Origin: Escherichia coli
GTDB lineage: Bacteria; Pseudomonadota; Gammaproteobacteria; Enterobacterales; Enterobacteriaceae
Direction: 5' to 3' (one strand)
Assembly: GCF_003334785.1 (NCBI RefSeq)
Contig: NZ_QOWV01000007.1
DNA length: 64,000 bases
The notes below the pieces were generated by a model, which was not told the origin of the DNA, searched no databases, and worked only from the letters and a program-made list of their open reading frames with translations. The translations under genes and the position numbers were made by a program. This document shows positions 24,677 through 34,212 of this stretch, one piece after another. Position 1 is the stretch's first letter. Each line of letters starts with the position of its first letter.

Positions 24677-27211
24677 TTAATTACTACCAAACATATCCTT
24701 GATCCAACCGGCTACACCGTCGCTGTCTTTCTGCTCTTGCTGAGCAGGTTGCTGTTGCGGCTGTTGCTGCGGCTGAGAAGACTGATCAAACGGATTGCCT
24801 GACGGCTGCTGCTGCATCTCGCTCTGCTGGCACAGCGATTGCGGATCGCTGGTCCAGACCGGCAAGATACGCATGCCACCGCTGCAAACAAAGTTGCCGT
24901 CGTAGTCCACGCCCATATCTGCAATATCTTCTGGCGGAACAAGATTCAGCGGCGTTGGCGTCTGGTTAGCCAGATAACGCTGATAAATCGACATTGCCCC
25001 GCTGGCACCATACAGTTTGGTCGGCTGGTTGTTATCACGGCCGACCCAGGTGATGGTCACCGTGCTGCCGTCAATGCCCGCAAACCAGGTATCTACGTTA
25101 TTGTTGGTAGTCCCTGTTTTCCCTGCCAGATGCAGGTTCGGGTATTTCGCCCCAAGCTGACGACCCGTACCGCGTTGTACCACCTGCTGCATGGTCCATA
25201 GTGTCAGATACGCCGCCTGCGCCGGAACAGCGCGTTCCGCCTGCGGGAAGCTCTGATACAGCACTTTGCCATCTTCCGCGATTACCGAACGCAGCGCAGA
25301 AAGCGGTGCACGGTTACCACCGCTGGCGATGGTCTGGAATGCCTGCGCCACTTCGATTGGCGTTAAGTTCAACGCCCCCAGCAGCATTGCCGGAACCGGA
25401 TGCAACTGATCTTTCGGTACGCCCAGTTTAATCCAGGTCTCCGTAACCGCAGGCAGCCCCAGCGCCATCCCCAGATTTACCGTCGGCACGTTCATCGAAC
25501 GGGTCAACGCATCCACCAGCATCACTCTGCCGCTTTCGCTATAACGACGGTCATCATTCTGCGGTGACCAGACCTGGCCATTCGGCTGACGCAGCGCAAT
25601 TGGCGCATCCGCAATCCACGTATTCAGACGATAGATTTTCGGCTGGCTTAAGGCCGTCAGATAAGTCGCTGGTTTTGCAAGGGAACCAATCGAACGACGC
25701 GCCTGCATCGCACGGTTGTAGCCCGCAAACTGCGGCTCAGAACCTCCGACCATCGCACGAACTTCACCACTAAAGCGGTCGACGACCACAATCGCAGTTT
25801 CAAGATCGCTCAACTTACGCTGTTTCTTCAGTGCCGGAATGCCTTCCACGGCGGCTTTTTCTGCCGCGTCCTGGGCCACCGAGTCAAAGGTAGTGAAGAT
25901 CTTCACGCCGGAGAGATCTTTTACCTTATCGCCCAGTTTTGCCTGCAGCTCCTGACGCACCAGTTGCATAAAGGCTGGCTGAGGAGAGATCACCCCACCG
26001 CGCGGCTGAACCCCCAGCGGACGGGCACTCAACATGTCATAGAGTTCTTGATCAATAATCTGTTGCTGTTGCAGCAGACGCAGCACCAGATTACGTCGCT
26101 CCAGCGCCAGTTTTGGGTTACGCCACGGGTTGTAGATGGACGCCCCTTTCACCATACCGACTAACAGCGCCTGCTGGTCGAGGCTTAGCTCTTCTACCGG
26201 GCGACCAAAGTAATACAAGCTTGCCAGCGGGAAGCCGCGGATTTCGTTGTCGCCGCTCTGACCGAGATACACCTCGTTCATATACAGCTCAAGAATACGG
26301 TCTTTGCTGTAACGCGCGTCCATGATCAGCGCCATGTAAGCTTCGTTCGCTTTACGCCAGTAAGAACGCTCGCTGGAGAGGAACAGGTTTTTCACCAGCT
26401 GTTGCGTCAGCGTACTCGCACCCTGTACCGTGCGTCCGGCGGTCAGGTTTGCCAGCACCGCACGTCCGATTGAGTAGAGACTGATTCCATCATGCTCGTA
26501 AAAATGACGGTCTTCTGTCGCCAGCAAAGTATCCACCAGCAAATCCGGGAAACCACTGCGCGGCACAAACAGACGCTGCTCACCGTTTGGCGAAGAGATC
26601 ATGGTGATCAGACGCGGATCAAGACGGAAGAAACCGAACTGACGGTTGTTCTCCATATTGACGATCGTCGCCAGATGATCGCCATCAAAGGTCAGACGCG
26701 CGCGCACCTGTCCTTCTTTACTGTCCGGGAAATCAAACGGACGGCGAATCATCTCAATGCTGTTGGCCTGCACGGTAAATTCGCCAGGACGGGTCATTTT
26801 CGACACCTGACGATACTGGGTCGCCTCCAGCAGCTTCACCATCTCGTTCTTGCTGATGGTCATGTCTGGCTCAAGATTGACCATTCGGCCATAAACTGCC
26901 GCAGGCAGTTGCCAGACCTTGCCATCAATACGGCTACGAATTTTTTGATCGAGATAAACGCCGTAAATGGCGATCAGCACGGCAAAAACGATAGCCAGTT
27001 TTAGCAGTAGCCATAGCCAGCCGCGTTTGCCACGAGGCTTACGCCCTTTGCCTTTGCCCTTACCTTTGCGCGGCATCGGTTCTTCATCCTCATAGTCATC
27101 ATAATCGTCGTAATCATCGTCATCTTCGTAACGACGACGGCTTACCTTTTGTTTGACCGGACGCGTCGGTTTCCCTTTGCGTCCAATTGGCTCGCGGTCA
27201 TTCCCGGCCAT
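24677..27211 (-). CDS. mrcB: Penicillin-binding protein 1B (bifunctional transglycosylase/transpeptidase)
   Basis: The known 844-aa protein starts at [14 protein letters not shown] (27211); the ORF track starts 5 codons upstream. Has SxxK-type transpeptidase domain. Confidence 0.96.
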
Positions 27212-27308
27212 GCTTTTTCTCCGCAATATTCAGGCGCAAAAGCCCGATTTTCTGTTCTTCTGTTACAAGACAGAAGAAGATATCTCTCAAAATTTGTGCT
27301 CGATCGGT

Positions 27309-27397
27309 CCCCTCTCCCTTGAGGGAGAGGGTTAGGGTGAGGGTGAACGTGCGCGCTGATGCCCTCACCCCGGCCCTCTCCCACAGGGAGAGGGAGA
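27309..27397. repeat. Two inverted boxC-like GC-rich palindromic repeat units in the hrpB-mrcB intergenic region
   Basis: cctctccc-ttg-agggagagg, then gggtgagggtga ... gccctcaccc, then ccctctccc-aca-gggagaggg; nested inverted repeats typical of intergenic boxC-type repeats. Confidence 0.7.
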
Positions 27398-27406
27398 AAA
27401 CCAACC

Positions 27407-29836
27407 TTACGAATACTTTTTCGTCCGTCGCGTCGGTGCAGTATTTGCCGGGTCGTCCGGCCAGACATGTTTGGGATAACGCCCTTTCATCTCTTTTTGC
27501 ACCTCACGGTACGCTCCTTTCCAGAAGGCGCTCAAATCTCGTGTGATTTGTAATGGCCTTTGGGCAGGTGAAAGCAACTCCAGCACCAGCGGCACGCGCC
27601 CCTGGGCGATCGTCGGATTGGTGGCCTCGCCAAACATCTCTTGCATTCTCACCGCCAGCGCGGGCGGGTTATCTTCATGATAACGAATGGCGATCCGGCT
27701 TCCCGTCGGCACAGTGTAATGCGCAGGCAATTCACTATCCAGACGTTGCTGCATTCCCCAATCAAGTAATCCGCGTAGTGCCTGATAAATGTCGAGTGAT
27801 TTCAGGCCGCGTAGTGAATGTACGCCAGTCATATGTGGCAGCAGCCACGTTTCCAGCGCTGCCAATAAACTTTCATCATCAACCGCTGGCCAGTCATATT
27901 CCGGCAACCACTTTGCGGCGCATAACAAACGCAAGCGTAGCTGTTCCGCTTCCGCCGTCCAGTTGAGCACGCTTAAACCTTTATCACGGATGCCATTAAG
28001 CATCGCCTGATGCAACTCGTCTTCTGACGGTTTCGCCAGCGGCTGCACTTTCACCGTCAACTGACCGATTTGTAGCCGACGCCAGGCTTTCAGCGTACCT
28101 TGCGCGTCATCCCACTCCACAGTGTCAGACTGCTGTACCAGCTGCGGGCAGCGTTGTACTAACTCATCAATATCGACCAGCAGCGCCAGTAAAATCCGCG
28201 CATCCGGCGAGGCGCTGCCCTGCAATAATAACGGTGCGATCAACCATTCGTGGCGGCTTAGCGCGTCGTTGGCATCGAGCATCGCTCCCATGCCGTTTGC
28301 CAGTTGATAGCGTCCATCTTGCCCACGGCGACGAGCAATGCGATCGGCAAACGCCCCGGCAAGTAGCGGCGCGATAAGCGAACTGTCTGCCTCACCGCCA
28401 CGTACGTTTAAGCGTTTTAACAGTTGCTGACTACGTTGCTGCCAGGCTGGTTGATTGCGCGAAAACGCCACGCCCAGGTCACTATTGCCCATCCGTGGCG
28501 GCTCTTCGAGAATGGCGGCAATTTTTGCCGCGGTAGCAGCTTCGTCGTCGTTCTTCGCGCTAACCAGCATTGCCGCTAAACGCGGATCGTTACCCAGCGC
28601 TGCCATTTTTTGCCCTTGCGCACTAAGCCGTTCACCCTCCAGTGCCCCCAGCATTTGTAACAGACGTTTCGCGGCCAGTAGATTCACTACTGGCGGTTGA
28701 TCCAGCCAGCTCATCTGCGCCGGATCGCTGCATCCCCATTGCAGTAATTCCATCAGCAAACCGGAAAGATCGCTTTGTAAGATCTCCGGTTCACTTTGCG
28801 CCGCGGCGCGTTCTGCTTGTTCTTTGGCGATTAAATGCAGGCTGATACCCGGCTCCAGACGCCCGGCGCGCCCGGCACGCTGCGTCATGGATGCCTGGCT
28901 AACGCGTTGAGTAATCAGTCGCGTAAGCCCCGTGCGCGGATCAAAACGCGCCACACGCTCCTGGGCACAATCCACCACCAGACGAATACCTTCAATGGTT
29001 AAACTGGTTTCAGCAATATTGGTCGCCAGCACCACTTTACGCATCCCTTGCGGTGCCGGGAGGATCGCTTTTCGCTGATCGTTCAGCGACAACGCGCCAT
29101 ACAGCGGGCAGAGCAATACATCACTGCCGATGCGCGAAGCCAGTTGTTCCTGCACACGCTGAATTTCTCCGACGCCAGGTAAAAATAACAGTAATGATCC
29201 GCTTTCCTGACGCAGCATTTCAGCGGTGGCTACCGCAACGGCATCGTCAAAACGCTGATGCGCGGGCAGCGGTAAATAACGGCGTTCAACCGGAAACGAG
29301 CGCCCTTCTGAGATGACGACAGGCGCTTCTGGCAGCATTTGCTGCAAGCGGTCGTTGTCCAGGGTAGCCGACATAATCAGCAGTTTAAGGTCATCACGCA
29401 GACCTTGTTGCACATCGAGTAACAGCGCCAACGCCAAATCCGCCTGCAAGCTGCGCTCATGAAATTCATCAAGGATCACCAGTCCAACACCGCTCAGTTC
29501 CGGGTCACGCTGGATCATGCGCGTCAGCACGCCTTCGGTAACCACTTCCAGGCGGGTATTCGGCCCGACGCAGTTTTGCGCACGCATCCGGTAGCCAACG
29601 GTATCGCCTGGCTTTTCGTTAAGCAGCTCCGCCAGCCGTTGCGCGACGTTACGCGCCGCCAGACGACGCGGCTCCAGCAGGATAATTTTCCCGTTAATGC
29701 CGGGATGCGCCAGCAGTTGCAGCGGCAGCCAGGTTGATTTCCCGGCCCCGGTCGGCGCACTTAATAATACCTGCGGCGCACAATCGAGAGCGGTAAGTAA
29801 TTCAGGTAAGACGGCAGCAACGGGCAACGACGACAC
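27407..29836 (-). CDS. hrpB: ATP-dependent DEAH-box RNA helicase HrpB
   Basis: The ORF track starts at 29881; the known 809-aa protein begins VSSLPVAAVLPELL at a GTG (29836). Walker A GAGKST and DEFH motif present. Confidence 0.92.
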   Translation of the reverse strand: MSSLPVAAVLPELLTALDCAPQVLLSAPTGAGKSTWLPLQLLAHPGINGKIILLEPRRLAARNVAQRLAELLNEKPGDTVGYRMRAQNCVGPNTRLEVVTEGVLTRMIQRDPELSGVGLVILDEFHERSLQADLALALLLDVQQGLRDDLKLLIMSATLDNDRLQQMLPEAPVVISEGRSFPVERRYLPLPAHQRFDDAVAVATAEMLRQESGSLLLFLPGVGEIQRVQEQLASRIGSDVLLCPLYGALSLNDQRKAILPAPQGMRKVVLATNIAETSLTIEGIRLVVDCAQERVARFDPRTGLTRLITQRVSQASMTQRAGRAGRLEPGISLHLIAKEQAERAAAQSEPEILQSDLSGLLMELLQWGCSDPAQMSWLDQPPVVNLLAAKRLLQMLGALEGERLSAQGQKMAALGNDPRLAAMLVSAKNDDEAATAAKIAAILEEPPRMGNSDLGVAFSRNQPAWQQRSQQLLKRLNVRGGEADSSLIAPLLAGAFADRIARRRGQDGRYQLANGMGAMLDANDALSRHEWLIAPLLLQGSASPDARILLALLVDIDELVQRCPQLVQQSDTVEWDDAQGTLKAWRRLQIGQLTVKVQPLAKPSEDELHQAMLNGIRDKGLSVLNWTAEAEQLRLRLLCAAKWLPEYDWPAVDDESLLAALETWLLPHMTGVHSLRGLKSLDIYQALRGLLDWGMQQRLDSELPAHYTVPTGSRIAIRYHEDNPPALAVRMQEMFGEATNPTIAQGRVPLVLELLSPAQRPLQITRDLSAFWKGAYREVQKEMKGRYPKHVWPDDPANTAPTRRTKKYS

Positions 29837-29909
29837 AAAACGCTCCAGAGGGTTAACATTCTTCGCGCCACATTGTAGCATCGCGGTAATTCATAACCGA
29901 GTGCCTCAC

Positions 29910-31159
<1,250 letters not shown>

Positions 31160-31336
31160 TAAAGTAAGTAACTGGTTAATTTACATTCTGGTCGCGTGCG
31201 CAAATACGCTTTTCCTCACACAGTTGTCAAGTGTTACGTTTAGATAATTGCTATCCGGAAAAGCATCTGCTATTTATAGCGGCCTCATTTTTCCCCCGAA
31301 CATGGGGATCGATAGTGCGTGTTAAGGAGAAGCAAC

Positions 31337-31792
31337 ATGCAAGAAGGGCAAAACCGTAAAACATCGTCCCTGAGTATTCTCGCCATCGCTGGGGTGGAAC
31401 CATATCAGGAGAAGCCGGGCGAAGAGTATATGAATGAAGCCCAGCTGGCGCACTTCCGTCGTATTCTGGAAGCATGGCGTAATCAACTCAGGGATGAAGT
31501 CGATCGCACCGTTACACATATGCAGGATGAAGCAGCCAACTTCCCGGACCCGGTAGACCGTGCAGCCCAGGAAGAAGAGTTCAGCCTCGAACTGCGTAAC
31601 CGCGATCGCGAGCGTAAGCTGATCAAAAAGATCGAGAAGACGCTGAAAAAAGTGGAAGACGAAGATTTCGGCTACTGCGAATCCTGCGGTGTTGAAATTG
31701 GTATTCGCCGTCTGGAAGCGCGCCCGACAGCCGATCTGTGCATCGACTGCAAAACGCTGGCTGAAATTCGCGAAAAACAGATGGCTGGCTAA
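31337..31792 (+). CDS. dksA: RNA polymerase-binding transcription factor DksA
   Basis: The known 151-aa protein starts at [19 protein letters not shown]; C4 zinc finger [25 protein letters not shown]. Confidence 0.96.
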
Positions 31793-31819
31793 TTACAGCC
31801 GTTCCATCACGTTTACCAC

Positions 31820-31848
31820 AGGCGGGAAATGCTCCCGCCTTATTTTTT
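31820..31848 (+). terminator. Rho-independent terminator after dksA, overlapping the gluQ start
   Basis: Hairpin ggcggga-aatgc-tcccgcc followed by ttatttttt; the ATG of the gluQ ORF (31829) lies in the loop. Confidence 0.75.
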
Positions 31849-32755
31849 GTTCAAAGAGATGACAGACACACAGTATATTGGCCGCTTCGCCCCCTCTCCT
31901 TCCGGCGAGCTTCATTTTGGCTCTCTGATCGCCGCGCTCGGCAGCTATTTGCAGGCTCGCGCCCGGCAAGGTCGCTGGCTGGTACGCATAGAAGATATCG
32001 ACCCGCCTCGTGAAGTTCCCGGTGCCGCAGAAACTATCCTGCGCCAGCTGGAACATTACGGTCTGCACTGGGACGGCGATGTTCTCTGGCAATCGCAACG
32101 TCACGACGCCTATCGTGAAGCACTCGCCTGGTTACATGAACAAGGACTAAGTTATTACTGCACCTGTACGCGTGCGCGTATTCAAAGCATTGGCGGTATT
32201 TACGACGGTCATTGCCGGGTGTTGCATCATGGACCAGACAACGCCGCAGTGCGTATCCGCCAGCAGCATCCGGTCACGCAATTTACTGACCAGCTGCGCG
32301 GCATTATTCACGCCGACGAAAAACTGGCACGGGAAGATTTTATCATTCATCGCCGTGATGGGTTGTTCGCCTACAACCTGGCTGTTGTGGTTGATGATCA
32401 TTTCCAGGGCGTTACAGAAATAGTGCGTGGGGCTGATCTGATTGAACCAACAGTAAGGCAAATCTCGCTGTACCAGCTTTTTGGCTGGAAAGTGCCAGAT
32501 TACATTCATCTGCCGCTGGCGCTTAATCCACAAGGCGCTAAACTTTCCAAGCAGAATCATGCGCCTGCGTTGCCGAAAGGCGATCCACGCCCGGTACTAA
32601 TCGCGGCACTTCAATTTCTGGGGCAGCAGGCAGAAGCACACTGGCAGGATTTCAGCGTCGAGCAAATCCTTCAGTCAGCCGTCAAAAACTGGCGGCTTAC
32701 CGCCGTGCCCGAGTCGGCAATTGTAAATTCAACATTCTCAAATGCGTCATGCTGA
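31829..32755 (+). CDS. gluQ: Glutamyl-queuosine tRNA(Asp) synthetase
   Basis: 308-aa ORF with class I synthetase-like motifs ([11 protein letters not shown] ... KLSKQ). The start is ambiguous: an alternative ATG at 31859 (MTDTQYIG) gives 298 aa. Confidence 0.88.
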
Positions 32756-32814
32756 GCTATGATTAGCCGCTATTTTTTTGTCCTGAATGATGTTTGACAC
32801 TACCGAGGTGTACT

Positions 32815-34212
32815 ATTTTTACCCGAGTCGCTAATTTTTGCCGCAAGGTGCTAAGCCGCGAGGAAAGCGAGGCTGAACAGGCAGTCGCCCGTCCACAGGT
32901 GACGGTGATCCCGCGTGAGCAGCATGCTATTTCCCGCAAAGATATCAGTGAAAATGCCCTGAAGGTAATGTACAGGCTCAATAAAGCGGGATACGAAGCC
33001 TGGCTGGTTGGCGGCGGCGTGCGCGACCTGTTACTTGGCAAAAAGCCGAAAGATTTTGACGTAACCACTAACGCCACGCCTGAGCAGGTGCGCAAACTGT
33101 TCCGTAACTGCCGCCTGGTGGGTCGCCGTTTCCGTCTGGCTCATGTAATGTTTGGCCCGGAGATTATCGAAGTTGCGACCTTCCGTGGACACCACGAAGG
33201 TAACGTCAGCGACCGCACGACCTCCCAACGCGGGCAAAACGGCATGTTGCTGCGCGACAACATTTTCGGCTCCATCGAAGAAGACGCCCAGCGCCGCGAT
33301 TTCACTATCAACAGCCTGTATTACAGCGTAGCGGATTTTACCGTCCGTGATTACGTTGGCGGCATGAAGGATCTGAAGGACGGCGTTATCCGTCTGATTG
33401 GTAACCCGGAAACGCGCTACCGTGAAGATCCGGTACGTATGCTGCGCGCGGTACGTTTTGCCGCCAAATTGGGTATGCGCATCAGCCCGGAAACCGCAGA
33501 ACCGATCCCTCGCCTCGCTACCCTGCTGAACGATATCCCACCGGCACGCCTGTTTGAAGAATCGCTTAAACTGCTACAAGCGGGCTACGGTTACGAAACC
33601 TATAAGCTGTTGTGTGAATATCATCTGTTCCAGCCGCTGTTCCCGACCATTACCCGCTACTTCACGGAAAATGGCGACAGCCCGATGGAGCGGATCATTG
33701 AACAGGTGCTGAAGAATACCGATACGCGTATCCATAACGATATGCGCGTGAACCCGGCGTTCCTGTTTGCCGCCATGTTCTGGTACCCACTGCTGGAGAC
33801 GGCACAGAAGATCGCCCAGGAAAGCGGCCTGACCTATCACGACGCTTTCGCGCTGGCGATGAACGACGTGCTGGACGAAGCCTGCCGTTCACTGGCAATC
33901 CCGAAACGTCTGACGACATTAACCCGCGATATCTGGCAGTTGCAGTTGCGTATGTCCCGTCGTCAGGGTAAACGCGCATGGAAACTGCTGGAGCATCCTA
34001 AGTTCCGTGCGGCTTATGACCTGTTGGCCTTGCGAGCTGAAGTTGAGCGTAACGCTGAACTGCAGCGTCTGGTGAAATGGTGGGGTGAGTTCCAGGTTTC
34101 CGCGCCACCAGACCAAAAAGGGATGCTCAACGAGCTGGATGAAGAACCGTCACCGCGTCGTCGTACTCGTCGTCCACGCAAACGCGCACCACGTCGTGAG
34201 GGTACCGCATGA
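32815..34212 (+). CDS. pcnB: Poly(A) polymerase I
   Basis: The ORF track starts at TTG 32794; the known 465-aa protein begins at the ATT codon 32815-32817 ([13 protein letters not shown]), a documented non-canonical AUU initiation. Confidence 0.9.

Follow-up and report, generated by a model that had tools for sequence, protein, structure and literature searches.

The closest described relative of the gene considered here is hrpB of E. coli K-12, whose product has been crystallised (PDB 6HEG, 6EUD) and is built from two RecA domains, a winged-helix domain, a ratchet domain, an OB domain and a unique C-terminal extension. RNA-dependent NTPase activity has been reported for HrpB of both E. coli and P. 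aeruginosa (PMC8325345, PMC7237152), and the C-terminal extension is required for the response to structured RNA (PMC7237152). Deletion of hrpB in either species gave no phenotype, cold stress included, and left motility and biofilm unaffected (PMC7237152); the cold-stress deletion test suggested alongside the original prediction was therefore already in print, with a negative outcome. E. coli HrpA shares the RecA1-RecA2-WH core, and HrpB residues 3–449 align with it (E ~1e-74). The DEAH motif of HrpA is a true one, its N-terminus carries an APHB domain and its C-terminal region is long, and the enzyme unwinds RNA 3'-5'. In HrpB the motif is DEFH and the C-terminal extension is of another kind, and the protein shows RNA-dependent NTPase activity without unwinding in isolation (PMC8325345, PMC11014265). 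The helicase cores of Prp43/DHX15, DHX8/Prp22 and DHX36 are likewise homologous to HrpB residues 3–445 (E ~1e-65 to 1e-72). HrpB is among the few widely conserved bacterial RNA-dependent NTPases that have a crystal structure yet no known function or phenotype.

The window (the whole 64,000-nucleotide stretch of E. coli DNA that was analysed) contains an 809-codon, GTG-initiated coding sequence on the minus strand (27407–29836), annotated by RefSeq/PGAP as 'ATP-dependent helicase HrpB'. The HrpB equivalog profile NCBIfam NF008662 matched it end to end, residues 1–809 against profile positions 1–812 of 813, with 1505.8 bits (cut-off 1053), and TIGR01970 matched with 1275 bits (cut-off 546.15). 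Motifs I, II, III and VI of the DExH superfamily 2 enzymes were all found: GAGKS (the GxGKS of motif I, residues 30–34), DEFH (123–126), SAT (156–158) and QRAGRAGR (319–326). These are followed by the Pfam domains CON_HrpB (residues 566–600, E = 4.9e-14) and HrpB_C (residues 664–796, E = 4.5e-54). In an alignment of 41 sequences, with homologues at 39–53% identity, G32, K33, D123, E124, H126, S156–T158, Q319 and G322–R326 were invariant. A literal DEAH is absent from motif II of HrpB; the DEFH that replaces it, also remarked upon in PMC11014265, contains F125, a residue conserved at 90% or more across the family alignment. The protein matches 6HEG at 808 of 809 residues and agrees with the K-12 protein in length, start, domain order and genomic position. 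The single substitution, A770 for the D770 of the crystallised protein, falls at a non-conserved position in the 41-homologue alignment. Several E. coli chromosomes match the region at 100% DNA identity, and of 5426 complete E. coli genomes all but one (5425) have hrpB.

We concluded with high confidence that this reading frame is the canonical E. coli hrpB, a gene already known whose protein has already been crystallised. That confidence is a joint one, placed on the best explanation as a whole: the gene identity together with the proposed RNA role, the promoter and start, read-through into mrcB and insertion of the spacer repeat. The original prediction had named the gene correctly, as judged by the RefSeq annotation, NCBIfam, Pfam and the 6HEG match; its 809 residues and GTG start agree with the RefSeq/PGAP annotation and the start-site evidence below, and the literature bears out its statement that the cellular role is undefined. 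It had left the strand unstated. Its DEAH label is apt for the DEAH/RHA (DExH) family but not for motif II, which reads DEFH, and 'helicase' holds as a family label, whereas the published biochemistry describes an RNA-dependent NTPase that does not unwind in isolation. As written, the observation contributes nothing new on HrpB; the comparative data give a concrete place to look.

The longest form of the reading frame begins at an ATG at 29881 and would encode 824 amino acids. The GTG (29836–29834) has a GGAG Shine-Dalgarno sequence 6 nt upstream (29846–29843), the pair occupying 29834–29846 on the minus strand. Both crystallised constructs start at the GTG-encoded residue, and homologues representing 50%-identity clusters align from query residue 1–4. 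GTG or TTG starts were found in 19 of 21 related loci and are kept across Enterobacterales, Vibrio, Aeromonas and Shewanella, and the arrangement GTTAACCCTCTGGAGC...GTG is conserved at the hrpB start in Enterobacterales. The 824-codon form was rejected: its ATG lies within the conserved TGCTACAAT and lacks a Shine-Dalgarno sequence, and stop codons interrupt the extension in seven of the sampled genera. The sequence TGCTACAAT stands at a constant distance from the hrpB start in Escherichia, Citrobacter, Enterobacter, Rahnella, Photorhabdus, Providencia and others. A candidate extended −10 element for hrpB, TGcTACAAT (29872–29880, minus strand), was recognised from sequence and conservation, with a predicted promoter function; the in-frame ATG (29881–29879) sits inside this −10 element and is not a start codon, and TACAAT is the Vibrio counterpart. 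In a promoter scan the element overlapped a −10-like TAGCAT (29876–29881, plus strand) of a putative promoter for the divergent thpR (ligT), which encodes an RNA 2',3'-cyclic phosphodiesterase (29910–30440, plus strand, RefSeq; 73 bp from the hrpB start). Judging from this conservation, hrpB would be read from an extended −10 promoter overlapping that of thpR, and its conserved weak start codon (GTG/TTG) would fit low abundance. An RNA-repair link between thpR and hrpB was considered and dropped, because the two genes lie side by side in Aeromonas and some Enterobacterales only.

Downstream of hrpB and in the same orientation lies mrcB, encoding PBP1b (24677–27211, minus strand; RefSeq, and tblastn in related loci). 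The two are separated by a spacer of 195 bp (27212–27406, minus strand) that contains an inverted repeat at 27309–27396, in agreement with the co-orientation and the repeat-containing spacer of the original prediction. Same-strand adjacency of hrpB and mrcB was found in all 21 loci of Enterobacterales, Vibrionales, Aeromonas and Shewanella, at HrpB identities down to 43%. It was found in none of the 59 loci outside those four groups, and 51 of these 59 include 3 kb or more of sequence downstream. Clustering of flanking reading frames at 80 loci revealed no cross-lineage conserved hrpB neighbour outside the gamma clade, where the neighbours are lineage-specific and non-RNA (a response regulator, a cation efflux protein, lipoproteins). 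In two Vibrio species the stop codon of hrpB and the start codon of mrcB overlap as ATGA; Aliivibrio has a spacer of 23 nt and Shewanella one of 29 nt, and in E. coli it is 195 or 93 bp, with an RNA polymerase binding site inside. The divergent sfsA-dksA-gluQRS-pcnB block is syntenic with the pair as well, yet in Shewanella hrpB adjoins mrcB while lying ~5 kb from sfsA. By these genomic comparisons the pairing is ancient and looks operon-like in related bacteria: the two genes were already linked before Vibrio, Shewanella and the enterics split. Together with the Vibrio overlap and the co-transcription in Dickeya, this points to PBP1b expression and the conserved structured mrcB leader. The operon link implied by the original prediction, still putative in E. 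coli, has stronger comparative support than could have been known from the sequence.

Comparative data and a published Dickeya transcript map suggest that hrpB transcription most likely continues into mrcB, and mrcB would also have an initiation site of its own in the spacer, giving an operon with an internal promoter. The chief alternative is that the E. coli genes are fully independent units, their adjacency an inherited order of no functional meaning, with the spacer hairpin ending or stabilising the hrpB mRNA and mrcB transcribed from its own promoter only. RegulonDB operon counts, as quoted by Kaplan 2016, list each gene as a single-gene operon (PMC5100583), and in genomic SELEX four RNA polymerase holoenzymes bound the spacer in vitro ~72 nt upstream of mrcB, indicating that mrcB can be transcribed independently. 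The long spacer allele carries a very stable hairpin, two enterobacterial-type loci (L010 and L165) have a canonical intrinsic terminator at the equivalent place, between hrpB and the conserved core, and the sfsA-dksA-gluQRS-pcnB synteny implies that part of the conservation is simple synteny. However, a separate promoter would not fit into the overlap or the spacers of at most 29 nt seen in Vibrio, Aliivibrio and Shewanella, and Shewanella hrpB has stayed beside mrcB despite its distance from sfsA. The E. coli hairpin has no U-tract, a scan found no terminator-like site on the sense strand of the spacer, and the hairpin is missing from ~35% of E. coli genomes; in the short allele none stands between the hrpB stop codon and the conserved core. 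Co-transcription has, moreover, been validated in Dickeya. On balance we consider full independence doubtful, while leaving it an appreciable share of the probability.

The conserved core directly upstream of mrcB (27212–27290, minus strand) is supported by SELEX binding, alignments and covariation. It comprises, on the minus strand, TTGAGAGAT (27290–27282), hairpin HP1 (27278–27270 paired with 27263–27255), GAAAAT (27252–27247), hairpin HP2 (27247–27230) and the mrcB Shine-Dalgarno sequence GGAG (27222–27219). HP1 pairing held at 99% across 18 sequences, and 4 of its 6 pairs showed compensatory changes. The leader is conserved and of fixed length, the three E. coli spacer alleles do not differ in the core, and an invariant UCUUC tract in the leader is able to base-pair with the Shine-Dalgarno sequence; Rfam gave no match for the leader. 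A published assignment places a sigma-70 promoter, TTGAGA-17-TGTAAC, in this region (27290–27285 and 27267–27262, minus strand), which we doubt, as its −10 hexamer lies in the loop of the hairpin and other genera do not conserve it. Two other candidate mrcB −10 elements are present, one just upstream of TGAGAG and the other GA(G/A)AAT.

These features raise the prospect that the function of HrpB concerns PBP1b or the envelope, for example through remodelling of the structured mrcB leader, with its UCUUC anti-Shine-Dalgarno tract, to tune PBP1b synthesis. The ancient operon-like pairing, the fixed-length conserved leader with its covarying hairpin and possible anti-Shine-Dalgarno pairing, and an ATPase that responds to structured RNA via the C-terminal extension (PMC7237152) are consistent with such a role. 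Yet HrpB is widespread where mrcB is not adjacent (Pseudomonas, alphaproteobacteria, Bacteroidota), no envelope phenotype has been reported, and none of the papers in the library searched tied HrpB functionally to PBP1b, LpoB or ribosomes. As the anti-Shine-Dalgarno pairs are invariant they carry no covariation evidence, and the leader might be promoter DNA only. We judge an envelope role improbable, and we would place a little less credence still in the full proposal, namely an ancient Enterobacterales-Vibrionales-Aeromonadales-Shewanella operon in which HrpB controls PBP1b synthesis post-transcriptionally via an mrcB leader whose covarying 5' hairpin is joined to an invariant UCUUC tract able to mask the Shine-Dalgarno sequence. 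The comparison of the two genes nevertheless gives a modest, testable lead tying HrpB to PBP1b expression.

A different role has been proposed in Xanthomonas citri, that of a specific mRNA-stability factor for surface-appendage genes such as fimA, and E. coli HrpB might act likewise. Deletion of X. citri hrpB reduced type IV pilus transcripts and biofilm (PMC4804567), but the normal motility and biofilm of the E. coli and P. aeruginosa deletions (PMC7237152) make a shared role in E. coli a long shot. The reading that we prefer is more general: HrpB most likely works as a clamp or translocase on RNA, driven by ATP and remodelling a structured RNA or an RNA-protein complex, and it probably depends on a partner protein or a particular substrate.

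The repeat in the spacer consists of two inverted G-tract/C-tract copies (27309–27396, minus strand) that make up one 88-nt palindrome and, as RNA, would form one long hairpin; the first copy carries GGGAGAGGGCCGGGGTGAGGG on the sense strand. The predicted fold has −76 kcal/mol (z = −7.6). Counting against read-through, a hairpin of this stability in the long allele could block or process it. Matches of the repeat to animal microRNAs in Rfam were rejected, at 29 bits against a gathering threshold of 74, as chance matches to a long hairpin. The repeat is dispersed, occupying a median of 10 sites per E. coli genome and 25 at most. At the hrpB-mrcB locus it is missing from ~1890 of 5426 E. coli genomes (~35%) and from E. 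albertii; other genera have different inserts at its site, and three spacer alleles occur in E. coli, including the 195-bp long, a 131-bp and the 93-bp short form. The repeats are of the HPG1/HPG2 type, presumably the same as the 'Box C' intergenic family. The copy in the E. coli spacer is a palindromic element of this dispersed kind that inserted later and can be dispensed with. By analogy with DHX36, which is among the PDB relatives of the HrpB helicase core, HrpB might resolve such G-quadruplex/hairpin repeats, one of them in its own 3' region, and a G-quadruplex-capable repeat does lie directly after the hrpB stop codon, but because the repeat is dispersed over ~10 sites per genome, often absent here and replaced in other genera, the juxtaposition looks accidental and we give this idea almost no credence.

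A TTG-initiated reading frame of 68 codons (27198–27404, minus strand), labelled 'hypothetical protein' in some records, runs through the repeat and the mrcB promoter/leader, and a curli phenotype has recently been attributed to it. Its start and half its length are missing from the short allele, and it is frameshifted in the 131-bp allele. Most likely it is not a gene but translated repeat and promoter DNA.

What is new here is the adjacency survey, the Vibrio ATGA overlap, the spacer-repeat polymorphism and the covarying mrcB leader hairpin; the gene itself is known. Compared with Prp43/DHX15, DHX8/Prp22 and DHX36, which have defined substrates and are activated by G-patch or other cofactors, HrpB has neither a known activator nor a known substrate. 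The spacer repeat resembles the HPG1/HPG2 'G-quadruplex-hairpin-duplex switch' repeats in having four G-tracts of at least 3 beside a complementary C-rich arm and dispersed intergenic copies; its sequence matches an oligonucleotide studied in that work, and the locus is listed by the authors as HPG1 no. 6 and HPG2 no. 5 (Kaplan 2016, PMC5100583). It differs in that two inverted copies form an 88-nt palindrome here, with presence/absence polymorphism in E. coli. For transcription the closest parallel is TU 1525 ('hrp, mrcB') of Dickeya dadantii, which has the same gene pair and the same divergent ligT-sfsA-dksA-gluQ-pcnB unit. The published transcript map shows it as one unit with an internal transcription start site and no internal terminator, validated by Nanopore; co-transcription and an internal start were thus measured in Dickeya, and in E. 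coli both are expected by comparison with it.

The gene hrpB was annotated in RefSeq as 'ATP-dependent helicase HrpB' (27407–29836, minus strand; 809 aa, GTG start). This annotation was read from chromosomes 100% identical to the window over 27100–30000, a stretch of which at least 80% was present in 5425 of 5426 complete E. coli genomes, and an ORF scan also placed the minus-strand ORF end at 27407. We concluded that the GTG at 29836–29834 (minus strand) is the correct start because GGAG lies 6 nt upstream, crystallised HrpB proteins begin at the same residue, alignments with distant homologues begin at residue 1–4 of the window protein, Enterobacterales share a GTG or TTG start together with the leader 'GTTAACCCTCTGGAGC', and stop codons cut off the alternative in-frame ATG at 29881, 15 codons further upstream, in seven of the sampled genera. 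Thus, RefSeq, the Shine-Dalgarno sequence, the crystallised constructs and the homologues all agreed with the 809-aa, GTG-initiated protein of the original prediction. Across 21 related loci the non-ATG start was conserved over large evolutionary distances, as GTG in most Enterobacterales and as TTG in Rahnella, Vibrio, Aeromonas and Shewanella, which suggests selection for weak translation initiation. Gene mrcB, encoding PBP1b, lies downstream (24677–27211, minus strand), and the spacer between the genes is 195 bp long (27212–27406). The RefSeq coordinates matched the predicted gap and co-orientation, and they placed both genes on the minus strand, a detail that had been left unstated.

To describe the linkage of hrpB and mrcB across species, HrpB relatives were scanned in one genome per species and the best 80 loci were retained. 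Gene mrcB was the next same-strand gene after hrpB in all 21 loci of one clade (Enterobacterales 15, Vibrionales 3, Aeromonas 1, Shewanella 2). It was found in the hrpB flanks of none of the 59 other loci (Pseudomonas, Pseudoalteromonas, Marinobacter, alpha- and deltaproteobacteria, Bacteroidota); for 51 of these, 3 kb or more of sequence was available downstream. The hrpB stop codon and the mrcB ATG overlapped as ATGA in two Vibrio species (loci L018, 10457–10460, and L019, 8492–8495), and the gap was 23 nt in Aliivibrio and 29 nt in two Shewanella (loci L022, L024 and L027); at so close a spacing there is no space for a separate mrcB promoter. In these species the PBP1b N-terminus, immediately following hrpB, is a lysine-rich tail. 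In a published transcript map of Dickeya dadantii, transcription unit TU 1525 is listed as 'hrp, mrcB', with a primary and one internal start site and no internal terminator, and is called 'validated' on the basis of Nanopore reads across both genes (PMC9239193, Table S1A).

We read hrpB-mrcB as an operon with an internal promoter. The rival explanation is that the two genes are independently transcribed in E. coli: both count as single-gene operons in the RegulonDB figures that Kaplan et al. (PMC5100583) cite, and in Genomic SELEX four RNA polymerase holoenzymes (RpoD, RpoH, RpoF and RpoE) bound ~72 nt upstream of the mrcB ATG. However, a scan of the spacer's sense strand found no terminator-like site, which favours read-through, and we consider it likely that some transcription continues from hrpB into mrcB in E. 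coli.

The part of the spacer directly upstream of mrcB is a conserved core (27290–27212, minus strand). The distance from its TTGAGA to the mrcB ATG was ~82 nt (81–83) in 18 of 18 distinct enterobacterial sequences (10 genomic, 8 found by scanning metagenomes). Within the core, the stem-loop HP1 (27278–27270 paired with 27263–27255, minus strand) showed covariation: pairing was kept at 99% across the 18 sequences, with compensatory changes on both sides at four of six pairs (20 cells), and neither the observed pairing nor the covariation was reached by any of 500 shuffles. Eighteen cells held U-G pairs whose U belongs to the 5' arm when the sense strand is read, and on the opposite strand these would be A-C mismatches; this orientation argues that HP1 is selected as a structure in RNA read from hrpB to mrcB. 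Such a core could belong to the mrcB 5' UTR, or it could occur solely in RNA that reads through from hrpB; TGTAAC, assigned in the literature as the −10 hexamer of the mrcB promoter, is not conserved and falls within the HP1 loop. A second hairpin of 6 bp, HP2, showed only one-sided G/A changes (G-U to A-U). The RNAalifold consensus paired an invariant UCUUC just 5' of HP1 (27279–27275) with the mrcB Shine-Dalgarno GGAGA (27222–27218, minus strand), a predicted pairing that would compete with the longer hairpin form; all five pairs are invariant and so carry no covariation evidence either way. No Rfam family scored above threshold in this core.

The remainder of the spacer is variable. Adjoining the hrpB stop is an 88-nt palindrome (27309–27396) of two inverted G-tract/C-tract repeat units, whose RNA fold was −76 kcal/mol (z = −7.6). 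The unit is dispersed, at a median of 10 and a maximum of 25 places per E. coli genome, and the hrpB-mrcB locus appears as HPG1 no. 6 and HPG2 no. 5, two published repeat motifs, in the 'G-quadruplex-hairpin-duplex switch' paper (PMC5100583). A query spanning the spacer was covered to at least 80% in 3536 of 5426 complete E. coli genomes (~65%, repeat present), and in ~1890 of the 5426 (~35%) the spacer was 93 bp long and lacked the repeat; in a less common allele of 131 bp, 64 bp between the repeated arms had been lost. The repeat pair is thus a presence/absence polymorphism that is not fixed in E. coli. It looks like an insertion, because E. albertii carries the 93-bp form. In a comparison of flanks in the window and in L004 (10428–10450), the left flank GGTTGGTTTT (27397–27406) is complementary to the right flank GACCGATC (27300–27308), lengthening the hairpin; where the repeat is lacking, in the short allele and in E. 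albertii, the site has the sequence GA(A/G)(A/G)ACCAAA. This may be a trace of the mode of palindromic-unit insertion. At the equivalent position Enterobacter cloacae has one copy of the unit, Citrobacter werkmanii and Superficieibacter have REP-like palindromes (several REPs in the 458-bp Superficieibacter spacer), and two enterobacterial-type loci (L010, L165) have canonical intrinsic terminators; one Citrobacter has no insert, and TTGAGA begins 2 nt past its hrpB stop. The junction from the hrpB stop to TTGAGAGAT is a cross-genus insertion hot spot confined to a few nucleotides past the stop (L006, L007, L009, L010, L095, L114, L165, L172), with inserts that are REP-like palindromes, one or two G/C-tract repeat copies, several REPs or an intrinsic terminator.

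A 68-codon ORF with a TTG start (27198–27404, minus strand) spans the repeat and the core, which holds the mrcB promoter and leader. The identical sequence was labelled 'hypothetical protein' on at least 1000 contigs, and it is probably, as matched by length and position, the 'D8B36_18480' ORF whose ectopic expression reduced curli expression (PMC10869245). We regard it as unlikely to be a gene, since its start and half of its codons are missing from the short spacer allele and its reading frame is shifted in the 131-bp one. The curli effect could stem from extra mrcB promoter/leader or palindrome sequence carried on the plasmid.

At the other end of hrpB, only 73 bp separate its GTG from the ATG of the divergent thpR (29910). 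A putative extended −10 element, TGcTACAAT (29880–29872, minus strand, toward hrpB), was found by sequence and conservation; it lies at a constant distance from the start in Escherichia, Citrobacter, Enterobacter, Rahnella, Photorhabdus, Providencia and others, with TACAAT as its Vibrio form. A promoter scan found the promoter-like site TTAACA-17-TAGCAT on the plus strand, toward thpR, and the hexamers TACAAT and TAGCAT share 2 bp. We infer that this region is a conserved bidirectional promoter with overlapping divergent promoters. Within 29853–29900, TGCTACAAT and a palindromic GTTAAC are kept across Enterobacterales. The divergent block thpR-sfsA-dksA-gluQRS-pcnB (29910–34212, plus strand) is rich in RNA-related genes, and its synteny with hrpB-mrcB extends from E. 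coli to Vibrio; in Vibrio, Photorhabdus and Providencia thpR itself does not adjoin hrpB.

The RNA preference of HrpB is set by its accessory domains and C-terminal extension, the latter being required for stimulation by structured RNA (PMC7237152). [quoted passage not shown] The only hrpB phenotype is in Xanthomonas citri, where type IV pilus transcripts and biofilm were lowered (PMC4804567). Our literature search found no later publication giving HrpB a function, and with deletions mostly lacking a phenotype, the statement that its role is undefined holds. We think it improbable that HrpB is tied to PBP1b expression; such a link becomes testable through modest additions, namely the hrpB-mrcB operon signature, the repeat polymorphism and the leader hairpin with its covariation.

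Against the NCBIfam HrpB equivalog, whose cut-off is 1053 bits, the window protein scored 1505.8 bits, and against TIGR01970 it scored 1275 bits. It contained the Pfam domains DEAD, Helicase_C, CON_HrpB and HrpB_C and belongs to a very large family, of which 35,510 cluster representatives reached E ≤ 1e-3. A 41-sequence alignment (39–53% identity) showed no variation in the catalytic residues of motifs I, II, III and VI; by every family feature that could be checked, the protein is HrpB. The predicted 'DEAH-box helicase' stands as regards homology to the DEAH/RHA family, but not literally, as motif II reads DEFH, in agreement with the literature, and 'helicase' is a family label: published work describes an RNA-dependent NTPase that did not unwind duplexes by itself (PMC8325345, PMC11014265). 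Compared with the crystal structure of E. coli HrpB (PDB 6HEG), 808 of 809 positions were shared. The sole difference was at codon 770 (27524–27526, minus strand), Ala in the window and Asp in 6HEG, a position that is variable in the family alignment. The gene itself is thus already known, with nothing new about it: hrpB of the window and the crystallised gene are one and the same.
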